DNA of 6,277 nt from a virus (Duplodnaviria; Heunggongvirae; Uroviricota; Caudoviricetes): IMG/VR virus record IMGVR_UViG_2713896736_000008. One strand, 5' to 3'. A program made the translations under genes and the position numbers. Every line of letters starts with the position of its first letter. Position 1 is the first letter of the stretch. The notes beneath the pieces are model-generated. The model did not search any database and was not told where the DNA came from. It worked only from the letters and a program-made list of their open reading frames with translations. Below are positions 3,074 through 6,277 of this stretch, piece after piece.

Positions 3074-3479
3074 NNNNNNNNNNNNNNNNNNNNNNNNNNN
3101 NNNNNNNNNNNNNNNNNNNNNNNNNNNNNNNNNNNNNNNNNNNNNNNNNNNNNNNNNNNNNNNNNNNNNNNNNNNNNNNNNNNNNNNNNNNNNNNNNNNN
3201 NNNNNNNNNNNNNNNNNNNNNNNNNNNNNNNNNNNNNNNNNNNNNNNNNNNNNNNNNNNNNNNNNNNNNNNNNNNNNNNNNNNNNNNNNNNNNNNNNNNN
3301 NNNNNNNNNNNNNNNNNNNNNNNNNNNNNNNNNNNNNNNNNNNNNNNNNNNNNNNNNNNNNNNNNNNNNNNNNNNNNNNNNNNNNNNNNNNNNNNNNNNN
3401 NNNNNNNNNNNNNNNNNNNNNNNNNNNNNNNNNNNNNNNNNNNNNNNNNNNNNNNNNNNNNNNNNNNNNNNNNNNNNNN
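3074..3479. other. 406-nt run of N (masked or unresolved sequence)
   Basis: Read directly. It hides the 3' end of the ORF at 3480-4051 and the 5' end of the exonuclease ORF. Every X run in the six-frame track comes from this block. Confidence 1.
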
Positions 3480-4051: not shown

Positions 4052-4143
4052 TTTGTTTTACCTCATTACAGATTTAAGGGTGAACAAATCCCTGCCATTG
4101 CTGGCATATAAGAATGAAATCGGATGTTTATTACGGAACTGTT

Positions 4144-4335
4144 TTAAAGACCTGCCGGGATTTCGTTATTATCATGGTGAATAACTTTATCGACAGGGTA
4201 ACAGTTACCGGGAATTTTCTGTTCGGTTGCTGCAGTCACACACTCCTGCATTGTCCTGTGAACACTGACTGCAATATCAACTGGCTCTCCGGAAACAAGA
4301 AAAACTGTCAGAACAAGTGCAAATGCTGTATTCAT
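4144..4335 (-). CDS. ydfD: YdfD-like small membrane (lysis) protein, 63 aa
   Basis: ATG at 4335-4333 overlaps the dicB stop TGA (4334-4332) as ATGA, implying translational coupling. N-terminus MNTAFALVLTVFLVSG is a single hydrophobic helix. Size and position directly downstream of dicB match ydfD of the Qin prophage. AAGGA Shine-Dalgarno 8 nt upstream. The track's longer 81-aa form (start 4389) and an ATG at 4344 are alternative starts. Confidence 0.68.
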   Translation of the reverse strand: MNTAFALVLTVFLVSGEPVDIAVSVHRTMQECVTAATEQKIPGNCYPVDKVIHHDNNEIPAGL

Positions 4336-4520
4336 TGCCAGCATCCTTTTTGTATCGGACGTAAACGGGCCAGCATTGAAAGAATGCATATTTTATTTAA
4401 TAACTCCCGTTCGTGTTTTCTCTTGTTAATGGCATCTTCAGTAAATACAGGGTTACTGATAGTGACACCAATTTCAAAACAACCTTCAGACGTATTAACG
4501 TTTGGTAATAACGTTTCCAT
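4332..4520 (-). CDS. dicB: Cell-division inhibitor DicB homolog, 62 aa
   Basis: Translation METLLPNVNTSEGCFEIGVTISNPVFTEDAINKRKHERELLNKICILSMLARLRPIQKGCWQ is near-identical, by recollection, to E. coli K-12 Qin DicB (MKTLLPNVNTSEGCFEIGVTISNPVFTEDAINKRKQERELLNKICIVSMLARLRLMPKGCAQ). GAGGA Shine-Dalgarno 7 nt upstream of the ATG at 4520-4518. The track ORF 4332..4625 extends this frame upstream to a GTG. Confidence 0.88.
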   Translation of the reverse strand: METLLPNVNTSEGCFEIGVTISNPVFTEDAINKRKHERELLNKICILSMLARLRPIQKGCWQ

Positions 4521-4689
4521 TATCGCGTCCTCAACAATGAATTTTGTGATGCGGTGCCTGGTGCCTCCAGGTGACGTTAACCAGTTAACAATTAACGCCG
4601 GATACAGAGAATCCACCCATAACACTGTTTTTAGCTTTAACTGTTCCGCGTGCGCTCAGCCGCATTCACTGCATCACAAAATTCACTTT

Positions 4690-4745
4690 AAAAAGGGCGG
4701 ACATCAGTTCATGGGCAAACAGATGCCGCCAAACGTCACCAGAAA
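4690..4745 (-). ncRNA. dicF: DicF small RNA homolog (about 56 nt) ending in an intrinsic terminator
   Basis: Minus strand reads UUUCUGGUGACGUUUGGCGGCAUCUGUUUGCCCAUGAACUGAUGUCCGCCCUUUUU. The 5' part UUUCUGGUGACGUUUGGCGG matches DicF as recalled from K-12. The 3' part forms a 9-bp stem with one bulged A (GGCGG(A)CAUC at 4696-4705 paired with GAUGCCGCC at 4722-4730 on the + strand) followed by U5 (4690-4694). Location just upstream of dicB matches the dicF-dicB arrangement. Confidence 0.72.
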
Positions 4746-4746
4746 A

Positions 4747-5078
4747 TTGATAACAGAGGGCGTTGCAGCGGGGTTGTCACTTAAGCGTATGGTCAACCTG
4801 ACAACCCGGTGTCCTCAACGGGGAAGGAATAACCCCGCCATACTTACCGCTGCGCCATTTCGCGGAGTGCCACAACCGGAAGCGCACGGTCGACGAAAAT
4901 TTAACGACAGGCTATCTATGAACCAGCAACCTCGCCGTGCGCTTTCGCGTTATGCTCTGACTTTTCAGAGAAATATCCTTTCAGTAAACTGTCAGTGCCG
5001 GATGTTCACCCGTGTCCGGCGCACGCACTCCACTTCACCCGTGGAGAACTCCTTAATTACCAACCCTCAGGAGGGTGA
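4747..5078 (-). promoter_or_regulatory. GC-rich, ORF-poor, hairpin-dense segment upstream of dicF; candidate structured precursor/leader RNA or regulatory region
   Basis: No minus-strand ORF with a usable start; stops are dense in all three minus frames. Hairpins on the + strand numbering: 4771-4779/4799-4807 (9 bp), 4819-4823/4833-4837 (5 bp), 4876-4889/4935-4948 (13 bp with one G-U), 4995-5004/5013-5022 (10 bp with G-U pairs), 5028-5033/5041-5046 (6 bp). Short motifs repeat within it (see findings). Confidence 0.4.
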
Positions 5079-5312
5079 ATGTTAAAATCAACTCTTATTG
5101 CTAAATGCCTTTATCAAAATCGCATGGTAAGCAGCATTTCAATAGGCGAGTCTGCAGTTAAAAGTATTTTCGAAGAGTACTTTCCCGGGCATGATTTTAA
5201 TAAATGGAATACCAAATTACCGCCAGCAGTTTCAACGCGTATTCTGAAAGCAACCGAAAGAGCAAGTACAATTCGCGTTAACTATTTCATTAAAGATTTG
5301 TGGGATCTTTGA
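5079..5312 (+). CDS. Hypothetical small protein, 77 aa, on the strand opposite the surrounding operon
   Basis: ATG at 5079 preceded by a strong Shine-Dalgarno AGGAGG (5069-5074, 4-nt spacer). AT-rich codon usage contrasts sharply with the GC-rich sequence immediately upstream. Its 3' end overlaps the convergent 135-aa gene by 23 nt. No family recognised. Confidence 0.55.
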   Translation: MLKSTLIAKCLYQNRMVSSISIGESAVKSIFEEYFPGHDFNKWNTKLPPAVSTRILKATERASTIRVNYFIKDLWDL

Positions 5313-5697
5313 TATCCACAGAGCCTAAAGTATGTGCATATGGATGTGCTATTATGCGCCCTCGCAGATTTGCATCATTTTCTAAATTCACTGAACGAAA
5401 CAGGGCATCAACAAGGCTCTGTACAATGCAAAGGCAATCGAAGACTGTCGCCGTTTCTGTTTTGATTGATGAAAGAACATGGCCATTCACGCAAACAGAA
5501 ATTACCCGTTTATTAACATCGCTTTCCTGCTTTTGATTATCAGAACCATATAGCCCAGAAAAAGCATTGCGCACATTACGAACCATATTATCGATGGTTT
5601 CTTTTTCTGCGGTACTAAGGTCAAGAGTAGCCAGTTGTGAACGAACTATATTCGATGCCATTTCCTGTAATGGCGTTGGTAAATCTTTAAATTCCAT
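5290..5697 (-). CDS. Hypothetical protein, 135 aa
   Basis: ATG at 5697-5695 with GAGG Shine-Dalgarno about 7 nt upstream, only 22 nt downstream of the 72-aa gene stop (operon-like). No helix-turn-helix or other motif recognised. Confidence 0.65.
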   Translation of the reverse strand: MEFKDLPTPLQEMASNIVRSQLATLDLSTAEKETIDNMVRNVRNAFSGLYGSDNQKQESDVNKRVISVCVNGHVLSSIKTETATVFDCLCIVQSLVDALFRSVNLENDANLRGRIIAHPYAHTLGSVDIKDPTNL

Positions 5698-5719: not shown

Positions 5720-5938
5720 TTAACGTGGGTATGTAATCATTCTGGCAATGCTTAATGCCGCTGCTTTTTCCAGATTGGTGATATCCTGCTCCAGAGCGGA
5801 CAGATTTTCAGCCTGCTTAGCCCTGGCTTCATTGGCCCATTTCAGGTCCTGCACCGCCTTAATTTTCTGGTGCATCCACTCATAAAGTTCATCATCGGTA
5901 TAGTCTGGCGCGATGATGACGGGGTCTCGTTTCTGCAT
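5720..5938 (-). CDS. Hypothetical small protein, 72 aa, predicted helical/coiled-coil
   Basis: ATG at 5938-5936 with a strong Shine-Dalgarno AAGGAG 4 nt upstream. First gene of the leftward gene string in this window. Occupies the position of the small ydfA/B/C-type ORFs of Qin, but its sequence is not confidently recognised. Confidence 0.7.
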   Translation of the reverse strand: MQKRDPVIIAPDYTDDELYEWMHQKIKAVQDLKWANEARAKQAENLSALEQDITNLEKAAALSIARMITYPR

Positions 5939-5998: not shown

Positions 5999-6031
5999 CT
6001 GAGGGGTCTGTTACTCGAGAGGAAATTGGTT

Positions 6032-6232
6032 ATGAATACAATCAAGTTTTCTTGCCCAGAATGTGGTGGCGAAGTCTTTGACACATCCTTTAAGCCGCAG
6101 GGCTCTGACAGTTTCGCGGGAGCCATCTGCAAAAATTGTGGTCACCTTGTAACTGAAGATGAGTCCTCGCAGTTCGATGACGAAATCGTTGACAATATCT
6201 TCGGTGCACTCACCAGAGACTTTCTGAAGTAA
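6032..6232 (+). CDS. Small zinc-ribbon protein with acidic C-terminal tail, 66 aa
   Basis: ATG at 6032 with GAGAGG Shine-Dalgarno 9 nt upstream (the track begins at an in-frame TTG at 6026). Two CxxC pairs (CPEC and CKNC, 22 residues apart) followed by an acidic tail EDESSQFDDEIVDNIF. Divergently transcribed from the 72-aa gene. Confidence 0.65.
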   Translation: MNTIKFSCPECGGEVFDTSFKPQGSDSFAGAICKNCGHLVTEDESSQFDDEIVDNIFGALTRDFLK

Positions 6233-6277
6233 AGGCGCATACCGCTTAGTTACCGCTCTGATAACTCTTACCTGCCC

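Follow-up and report, generated by a model that had tools for sequence, protein, structure and literature searches.

The segment upstream of DicF in a lambdoid prophage at ompW is probably a modular precursor leader with a conserved RNA domain

The probable DicF precursor and its processing

The DNA analysed here, which we call the window, is a stretch of 6,277 nucleotides from a member of the Caudoviricetes (IMG/VR record IMGVR_UViG_2713896736_000008), and the segment of interest is positions 4747-5078, read on the minus strand. Taken as a whole, the best explanation of this segment is that it is the untranslated leader of the precursor of the small RNA (sRNA) DicF, in the leftward early operon of the dicBF type of a lambdoid prophage at ompW, and we consider this explanation likely. 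Both the nature of such a leader and its main mechanism, processing by RNase III, are already known from Escherichia coli K-12, and the present copy is another member of that kind. A first-pass annotation of the window had described a structured, non-coding segment upstream of DicF, and this holds: it is GC-rich, contains no credible open reading frame (ORF) and is folded. DicF is among the oldest known bacterial sRNAs and controls cell division, metabolism and the virulence of enterohaemorrhagic E. coli (EHEC), and the release of the active 53-nt DicF from the operon transcript is only partly understood.

The best-supported reading, and in our judgement a probable one, is a maturation by two nucleases on a modular precursor. 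A repressor-controlled early-left promoter would give a transcript that runs through ydfC and two inserted genes into the leader, where two copies of a heptamer, B and C, would form the 10-bp helix at the core of an imperfect hairpin of 84 nt (4954-4871). RNase III would cut the 3' arm of this hairpin at about 4877-4882, a cut that is experimental for the 94-98% identical K-12 sequence and is transferred to the window. An RNA of about 190 nt would then be set free, with its first nucleotides GUUGUGGC (4876-4869) previously held in the lower stem of the hairpin, and judging from covariation these nucleotides would pair with 4769-4762 and close a domain of the helices P1 to P4. RNase E would cut an AU-rich linker about 16 nt downstream of the domain (4746/4745), and the mature DicF would end at its own intrinsic terminator. 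Where RNA polymerase reads through that terminator, the RNA would fold a second stem (4687-4671 with 4552-4536), and an RNase III cut there would give a 72-nt form.

Much of this is founded on K-12, where the dicBp transcript is the only source of DicF and there was no sign of an internal promoter (PMC10448788). RNase III makes the 5' end of the 190-nt DicF there, about 137 nt upstream of DicF proper, and RNase E that of the 53-nt form (PMC10448788, citing and confirming Faubladier 1990); without RNase III (rnc mutant) the 190-nt species disappears, and with RNase E inactivated (rne-ts mutant) it builds up (PMC10448788). The terminated ydfABC-dicF RNA is the main species, while the read-through RNA accumulates only upon inactivation of RNase E (PMC10448788), and the 72-nt species results from RNase III cleavage of the read-through RNA (PMC9438474, PMC5069750).

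The window is close enough to K-12 for these ends to be placed on it. Positions 4640-5065 are 94.4% identical (426 nt) to the stretch between dicB and ydfC in the Qin prophage of K-12, and the leader overall is 94-98% identical to the K-12 ydfC-dicF spacer. We counted 190 nt back from the 3' end of K-12 DicF (CCC, +3 U or +5 U; 0-5 terminal U) and aligned the result to the window, which puts the 5' end at 4877-4882 on the minus strand, at the 3' edge of heptamer C and inside the hairpin formed by B and C. The long species, 190 nt in K-12, would be about 188 nt here. The authors of PMC10448788 made their primer-extension template with a forward primer whose start corresponds to 4911, in agreement with this placement. 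That the region belongs to a leftward DicF precursor with an RNase III site, as the first-pass annotation had proposed, is thus borne out by the K-12 homology and the mapped 190-nt 5' end, the enzyme dependence being known from K-12 only.

Further downstream, a single-stranded, AU-rich linker of 16 nt, GCCCUCUGUUAUCAA (4761-4746, minus strand), would end at the RNase E cut that gives the mature 5' end of DicF. This end was placed by Rfam and by the alignment to K-12, and the dependence on RNase E comes from K-12 only. DicF itself, with its intrinsic terminator, lies at 4745-4690 on the minus strand (4745-4695 according to Rfam) and would be a 51-nt variant plus U tail, compared with 53 nt in K-12. 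The match to RF00039 has 43.5 bits (E 3.3e-7), below the gathering score of 48, and the terminator hairpin is found in the folds. The first 26 nt at the 5' end are identical to K-12 DicF and the terminator loop differs (GGCGGCAUCUGUUUGCCCAUGAACUGAUGUCCGCC), and we treat 4745-4695 as a putative DicF variant despite the sub-threshold Rfam score.

The probable RNase III hairpin

The heptamer CGTGCGC/GCGCACG had been reported to occur four times, and the four copies are found exactly at the positions given for them and nowhere else in the 6277-bp window. On the RNA they follow each other, 5' to 3', as A (CGUGCGC, 5025-5019; GCGCACG on the plus strand), B (GCGCACG, 4942-4936), C (CGUGCGC, 4888-4882), DicF and D (GCGCACG, 4655-4649, downstream of DicF). 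The expected number over the whole window is 0.69, and four copies were reached in 1 of 200 shuffles. When dinucleotides were preserved, the specific heptamer never occurred at least four times within a 430-nt span (0 of 5000 shuffles), and with the post-hoc correction that any 7-mer on both strands may count, 71 of 5000 shuffles did so. The clustering exceeds chance, yet B and C, as opposite arms of a single helix, are not independent.

The hairpin that encloses B and C (4954-4871, 84 nt, minus strand) is long and imperfect. It starts with a lower stem of 6 bp (4954-4949 with 4876-4871, CAUAAC/GUUGUG) and a step of 2 bp (4947-4946 with 4878-4877), continues with the 10-bp core helix that contains both heptamers (4944-4935 with 4889-4880), and after a bulged A4890 there are 3 bp more (4934-4932 with 4893-4891). 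The 13-bp hairpin that had been suggested between the copies at 4882 and 4936 is accordingly present as 10 bp, a bulge and 3 bp inside a longer structure. The apical part is hypervariable and fully different between lineages, with a conserved GUCGUUAAAUUU on its 3' side. The duplex of B and C has an energy of -34.3 kcal/mol, and the minimum free energy (MFE) fold of the whole 5078-4515 transcript pairs B with C.

The variation between loci is compatible with the pairing. In 53 distinct variants, 98.5% of the cells of the 21 lower pairs are paired, compared with 28-39% in slid controls; 8 of the pairs never vary, 10 vary on one side, each change giving a G·U or U·G wobble on the minus strand, and the remaining 3 depart only through a few unpaired cells. 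The Qin copy of heptamer B carries such a G·U (GCGCAUG), unlike the window copy. The homologue in the Rac prophage of K-12 keeps all ten core pairs, with two compensatory changes (A-U to G-C and G-C to U-A) and two wobbles. With 21 predicted pairs (6+2+10+3) and an apical helix the hairpin has the duplex length expected of an RNase III substrate, about two helical turns. Given the K-12 homology, we infer that RNase III acts on the B:C hairpin to produce the 190-nt species, the enzyme dependence itself having been shown for K-12 only. An attenuator-like switch, in which A:B and C:D would alternate with B:C, was considered and rejected: A:B would have no more than 7 bp (-18.1 kcal/mol, flanks included), loci can do without A, and the copies do not covary.

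A conserved four-helix domain

The 5' body of the long DicF species is a domain of about 115 nt (4876-4762, minus strand), for which comparative folding gave a model with four helices. P1 (4876-4869 with 4769-4762), whose 5' strand is GUUGUGGC, closes the domain; inside it are P2 (4865-4861 with 4854-4850), P3a (4849-4846 with 4810-4807), which leads to the variable hairpin P3 (4837-4833 with 4823-4819), and P4 (4806-4799 with 4779-4772), which has a conserved 19-nt loop and an inner helix P4i (4798-4797 with 4785-4784). Identity over 4876-4760 is 0.91-1.0 among DicF loci, compared with 0.48-0.68 for DicF's own terminator, and the domain is present in 105 of the 106 distinct DicF loci. It is also found at loci without DicF, in phages P1/P7, cdtI, the Stx2c phages, 2H10, Salmonella phage F1055 and others, and scanning viral contigs for its pattern yielded 119 distinct contexts.

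Two alignments speak for the model. A structure-blind MAFFT alignment of 50 sequences has 96% of the cells paired and 6 pairs with two-sided changes, against 1.8±0.9 in shuffled alignments (0/500 reached this) and 0-3 in slid ones, and a covariance-model alignment of 82 distinct sequences has 97.2% paired and 9 two-sided pairs, against 3.0±1.1 (0/500) and 0-2; the latter alignment leans to its own model, and the MAFFT result is therefore the safer one. Most of the compensation is in P3, which occurs as CGGGG/CCCCG, CUGGGG/CUCCAG, CAGGUG/CACCUG, CUGGG/CCCAG and GGGGU/ACCCC. P1 varies as UG, UA or CA against a fixed partner, and has one C-G to U-A change. A closing helix GCAGCGG/CCGCUGC was rejected as specific for the window variant, the variants of its 3' arm (CUG, CUA, CCA and ACCAC) fitting the pairing with GUUGUGGC instead. 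A brute-force covariation scan of all column pairs was too noisy to use, and RNAduplex on long segments gave sprawling and uninformative duplexes.

The calculated 5' end of the long DicF falls directly before the 5' strand of P1. The lower stem of the RNase III hairpin uses this very strand (GUUGUG) as its 3' half. Helix P1 and the base of the hairpin are therefore mutually exclusive, and cleavage by RNase III would free P1 to form.

Rfam 15 has no match (E <=1) over the domain, neither in the window nor in 11 related loci. The order of the four arms resembles a cloverleaf and the arm sizes do not; ARAGORN found 0 tRNA genes in the window, Rfam no tRNA match, and a mascRNA match of 14.3 bits (E 1.4) is at noise level. 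A published description of the domain with exchangeable cargos was not found in the literature searched, which excluded the primary papers of 1990, 1994 and 2004, and such a domain appears to be undescribed.

What follows the domain is variable. We found 11 clusters of cargos, all ending in a terminator hairpin and a U run, and most of them have the terminator stem of DicF (UUUGGCGG...CCGCC) together with different 5' seeds. In E. coli A34 (L134, 1550-1624) DicF is replaced by a tRNA-like gene of 75-78 nt (Rfam tRNA 46.6 bits, "tRNA-OTHER" according to PGAP, ARAGORN negative), with the domain upstream and the stem-loop downstream retained. At four loci (L137, L165, L152 and L134) the early operon continues, a few hundred nucleotides beyond the sRNA cassette, with isrK and C4 antisense RNA (Rfam 60-82 bits), so that several processed RNAs would stand in series on it.

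Phages P1 and P7 have the domain in the leader of the ban operon, annotated only as a "dicF-like region" (AF234172). P2, P3a, P3 and P4 are present there with 76-81% identity and with changes in P3, P3a and P4 that are compensatory, and the cargo of phage P1 is a short terminator hairpin. Unlike the window, the element begins about 25 nt after the C1-controlled P1ban promoter and not after an RNase III hairpin, it has neither helix P1 nor a DicF seed nor the heptamers, and tRNA genes are found downstream.

The Rac prophage of K-12 (L196, 22507-22680, between sieB and kilR) has the homologue of the RNase III hairpin followed directly by a DicF-like seed and terminator (…CGACAUUGCUGUGUGUAGUCCUGGCGGCAUCAG…CUGAUGUCCGCCCUUUUU), then the stem-loop with heptamer D and then kilR. 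We searched for a second copy of the domain in Rac and found none, only this homologue without it. The seed and terminator look like an unannotated sRNA candidate of the DicF family in K-12. The terminator stem of the window DicF (GGCGGCAUC…GAUGUCCGCC) is common to the Rac candidate.

We hypothesize that the domain is a platform for the maturation and stability of the sRNA of seed plus terminator that follows it. Its task might be to position or gate the RNase E cut, or to protect the long form; this is a tentative proposal, for which the chances are close to balanced and perhaps a little poorer than that. A wider and somewhat more doubtful idea is that the domain of about 115 nt could represent an undescribed, phage-borne RNA family, a portable "launch platform" for sRNAs that is conserved from lambdoid phages to P1/P7. 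Its 5' end would be given in some cases by a promoter and in others by an RNase III hairpin, the lower stem of which keeps the P1 strand sequestered up to the cut, its cargos would be interchangeable, and its loops might bind a host factor that controls cargo maturation.

The most interesting rival to a platform is that the core of the domain (P3a/P3 and P4, about 72 nt) is a put-like, cis-acting processive antiterminator for read-through into dicB or kil, the recombination genes and int, which we regard as unlikely. The put element of phage HK022 is also about 70 nt long with two adjacent stem-loops (PMC9378689), but no sequence similarity to HK022 exists, blastn-short giving only chance matches, and a covariance model (R1) had no match in the HK022 genome; as Rfam holds no put model, the comparison consists of sequence and covariance-model searches only. 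The position of the element is suggestive: it is always found in early operons under repressor control, with an intrinsic terminator downstream that has to be passed before the later genes can be expressed, and it starts about 25 nt after the start of P1ban in phage P1 and about 280 nt after a consensus-like pL promoter in cdtI. In operons of the dicBF type, however, its distance to the promoter is at least about 0.8 kb. A scan of the early-left-operon proteins at two loci, the window prophage and cdtI, gave no recognised antiterminator annotation. The DicF terminator of K-12 is efficient, with terminated RNA dominant and read-through RNA accumulating only when RNase E is inactive (PMC10448788), and this argues against efficient antitermination.

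The second stem, the distal leader and the heptamers

The dicF-dicB spacer folds into a stem-loop (4687-4536, minus strand; fold z -4.0) that encloses heptamer D and closes just before the ribosome-binding site of dicB. Its basal duplex, 4687-4671 with 4552-4536, is a perfect helix of 17 bp, extendable to about 21 bp, with an energy of -31.2 kcal/mol, and it is kept in 23 sequence combinations with mostly wobble-compatible changes, also where other genes replace dicB. Phage cdtI has the same stem-loop architecture made from unrelated sequence. The published 3' end of the 72-nt DicF (about 4674-4676) falls in the middle of the duplex, which is likely to be the RNase III site for this end, and pairing of A or C with D is not needed for it. 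Rfam gives a sub-threshold match to STnc100 at 4501-4706 on the minus strand (33.5 bits, gathering score 47). The module with D also precedes kilR in Rac and other genes elsewhere, and behaves as an independent leader cassette for genes of cell-division inhibitors; in Rac, the arm homologous to C diverges while D is present upstream of kilR.

The distal part of the leader (5078-4955, minus strand) is a mosaic, with a per-position identity of 0.32-0.86. It consists of the hairpin H1 (5046-5041 with 5033-5028), heptamer A, the hairpin H2 (5020-5015 with 5002-4997) and a small hairpin H0 (about 4968-4955) with U-A to C-G changes. Heptamer A sits between two hairpins, and CACGGGUGA is repeated in the loops of H1 and H2 (5043-5035 and 5014-5006). 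Homology among about 100 loci breaks at 5079, 5065, 5043, 5025, 5014, 4968 and 4954. A is found in 74 of the 106 distinct loci and missing from the 32 others, which retain B, C and D, and at two loci (L072 and L087) a natural deletion between the CACGGGUGA repeats has removed it. Two other loci (L010 and L152) have lost the stretch between CGCGAAA repeats (4949-4943 and 4864-4858) that lie in the RNase III hairpin and in P2. A long-range helix in the MFE fold of the window (5035-5027 with 4868-4860) was rejected: its 3' side varies (ACU, AAU, AAC) and its 5' side is fixed.

The heptamers thus differ in how they are kept, D being present in 102 of the 106 loci. B, C and D have an 8-mer in common, and the contexts of A and D resemble those of C and B (CGUGCGC..CCGG and AGCGCACG..GCG), a likeness that may go back to an old duplication of the hairpin arms. 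Neither A nor D is needed to explain the known processing.

A number of observations count against the two-nuclease reading. The RNase III cut site is transferred from K-12, where "190 nt" is a gel estimate, and its position is good to a few nucleotides at best. Two-sided compensatory change in the RNase III stem is absent among the 53 variants of DicF loci, and compensation is seen only in the single divergent homologue in Rac. Within the domain, P2 has no compensatory change, helix P1 is missing in phages P1/P7 and in pPE4, the alternative helix GCAGCGG/CCGCUGC competes with the model in the window variant, and the folding is thermodynamically unremarkable (z -0.49 over 4880-4759, z -1.89 over the 190-nt species). 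Rac has a DicF-like sRNA without the domain, so a locus of this kind can persist in its absence. Furthermore, the model has no explanation for the 7-8-mer common to A and D, duplexes of A:D and C:D are thermodynamically possible, and a weak RNase III-dependent signal in K-12 (site 1649470 in the table of Gordon 2017, about window 4659) lies 4 nt from D, although it consists of 26 reads and has low positional resolution.

These last points speak for another rival, that A (5025-5019) or C pairs with D (4655-4649) across DicF in a processing stem like that of rRNA, which RNase III would cut on both sides. The first-pass annotation had proposed such a duplex between the copies at 4649 and 5019, and this part of it did not stand; we consider any version of it quite improbable. 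The isolated energies are considerable (A with D -28.1, C with D -23.6 kcal/mol), folds that start at C, where B is absent, pair C with D, and D is kept nearly everywhere and belongs to the common 8-mer, but the full-length MFE fold has B:C, the duplexes are short for RNase III (9 bp for C:D and about 12 bp for A:D), and A is dispensable, being absent from almost a third of the loci that retain D. Among the aligned loci, neither A and D nor C and D were seen to covary. The mapped 5' end is at C and not at A, the 72-nt 3' end (about 4675) lies in another and much longer duplex, and the flank changes in Rac preserve B:C while C:D falls to 6 bp.

Even less probable is that the heptamers are DNA half-sites of a palindrome CGTGCGCACG bound by a phage or host protein, a role that had been put forward as equally possible and that does not fit the variation. 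Four copies in both orientations within 377 bp are above chance, but the spacing between them is irregular (47, 76 and 226 bp), and A is dispensable. B varies from C to U, a change that alters a DNA site and keeps the RNA pairing through G·U; it is only in the minus-strand RNA that the one-sided changes of the stem leave G·U pairs, and the Rac homologue alters the sequence of both arms and keeps their pairing. We know of no regulator that uses the motif, the heptamer not having been compared with any collection of known binding sites.

The locus, its composition and coding potential

The window matches E. coli O157:H7 LSU61 with 100% identity; there the prophage adjoins a fragment of ompW. To the PPompW phages the window is 97-99% identical. 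RefSeq annotates the gene order in LSU61 as int, xis, exonuclease, DUF1482, dicB, [DicF], leader, 77-aa gene, 135-aa gene, ydfC and repressor. A 681-nt query of the leader and its flanks (4640-5320) was searched against 5426 complete E. coli genomes; 4356 had a match, at a median of two places in each.

The leader has the position of a dicBF leader, with ydfC upstream on the same strand and dicF-dicB downstream, and with two extra genes between ydfC and the leader. On the minus strand ydfC lies at 5720-5938 (phrog_1744, E 9e-39; also in RefSeq of the identical O157:H7 locus) and is the last upstream coding gene common to K-12; dicB, downstream of the precursor, is at 4332-4520 (Pfam DicB, E 1.7e-37; RefSeq). 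The two extra genes are an insertion relative to K-12, the homology to which stops at 5065-5079. One of them encodes 77 aa on the plus strand (5079-5312; phrog_10348, E 1e-47), has a strong Shine-Dalgarno sequence and marks the distal boundary of the leader, and the other encodes 135 aa on the minus strand (5290-5697; phrog_1363, E 5e-47); their 3' ends overlap by 23 nt. Transcription of the 77-aa gene would run antisense to the dicBF-type operon.

Further to the left, also on the minus strand, are the integrase gene (32-1162) and, between it and dicB, the genes of an excisionase, a RecE-like exonuclease and a member of the DUF1482/YdfD family; a masked run of 406 N (3074-3479) interrupts the exonuclease gene. 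At the other end (6011-6277) there are two overlapping antisense ORFs that each match a phage protein family, a 99-aa gene on the minus strand that is annotated in RefSeq, matches phrog_21318 and is cut by the end of the window, and a 66-aa zinc-ribbon ORF on the plus strand (6032-6232; phrog_4852, E 1e-9, and weakly DUF5795).

The GC content is 0.51-0.58 across 4700-5050, compared with 0.37-0.46 in the flanks. The fold z-score is -3.45 for the minus strand and -3.77 for the plus strand, and with values so similar thermodynamics alone cannot pick the functional strand. The only minus-strand ORFs in the segment are one of 30 aa (TTG start) and one of 36 aa (GTG start), and homologues have 1-nt indels inside both. 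The plus strand has a frame of 323 aa (4114-5085) that matches neither a Pfam nor a PHROG family and is interrupted by these indels too; running antisense through ydfD, dicB, DicF and the leader, it is a mechanical ORF and not a gene. That the segment would be a decayed or unannotated protein gene, or the promoter and 5' untranslated region of the 77-aa gene, is hardly credible, since the open frame, the Shine-Dalgarno sequence at 5079 and the "hypothetical proteins" annotated over the homologous stretch in some phage records are met by indels of 1 nt that break every frame among close homologues, a plus strand without any promoter-like site in 4747-5078, a K-12 leader that is the same without the 77-aa gene, and substitutions that follow the RNA pairing.

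Comparison with known systems and meaning of the findings

The closest system is the ydfC-dicF leader of Qin (Faubladier, Cam & Bouché 1990; Ragunathan et al. 2023, PMC10448788), which has the same neighbours on the DicF side (DicF, dicB and the ydfD/DUF1482 family), a hairpin at the mapped RNase III site, the RNase E junction and a stem after DicF. It differs from the window in lacking the two-gene insertion that here separates ydfC from the leader and in the terminator loop of DicF, and P2 has a C·A mismatch in the window copy; processing has been measured in K-12, whereas the window copy is known from sequence.

The processing stems of 16S and 23S rRNA, the leader of lambda N and sib, which are cut by RNase III, are also imperfect duplexes in a primary transcript whose cleavage sets the ends of stable RNAs, and the second stem is a long-range duplex of this type. 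The upstream site is instead a local hairpin that does not enclose the product, and DicF would not be excised by one enclosing stem, its 5' end needing RNase E and its 3' end being mostly set by the terminator. MicL, CpxQ and SroC (reviewed in PMC9438474) are sRNAs of seed plus terminator that RNase E cuts from a longer mRNA, downstream of structured RNA. In comparison with these, the structure upstream of DicF is a large domain with support from covariation, conserved across phage lineages while the seed is exchanged, and the RNase III step would come first.

The feature is real, yet it is largely explained by known biology, and the conserved domain is the part that goes beyond re-identification. 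The published RNase III cut can now be assigned to a specific conserved hairpin, made by heptamers B and C, and the published 3' end of the 72-nt form to a second conserved stem. The long 190-nt DicF species would be a discrete and conserved RNA domain fused to an exchangeable seed. Helix P1, P3, the loop of P4 and the B:C stem are concrete targets in the search for what limits the maturation of DicF, and the relatives with swapped seeds are candidates for new prophage sRNAs with other targets.

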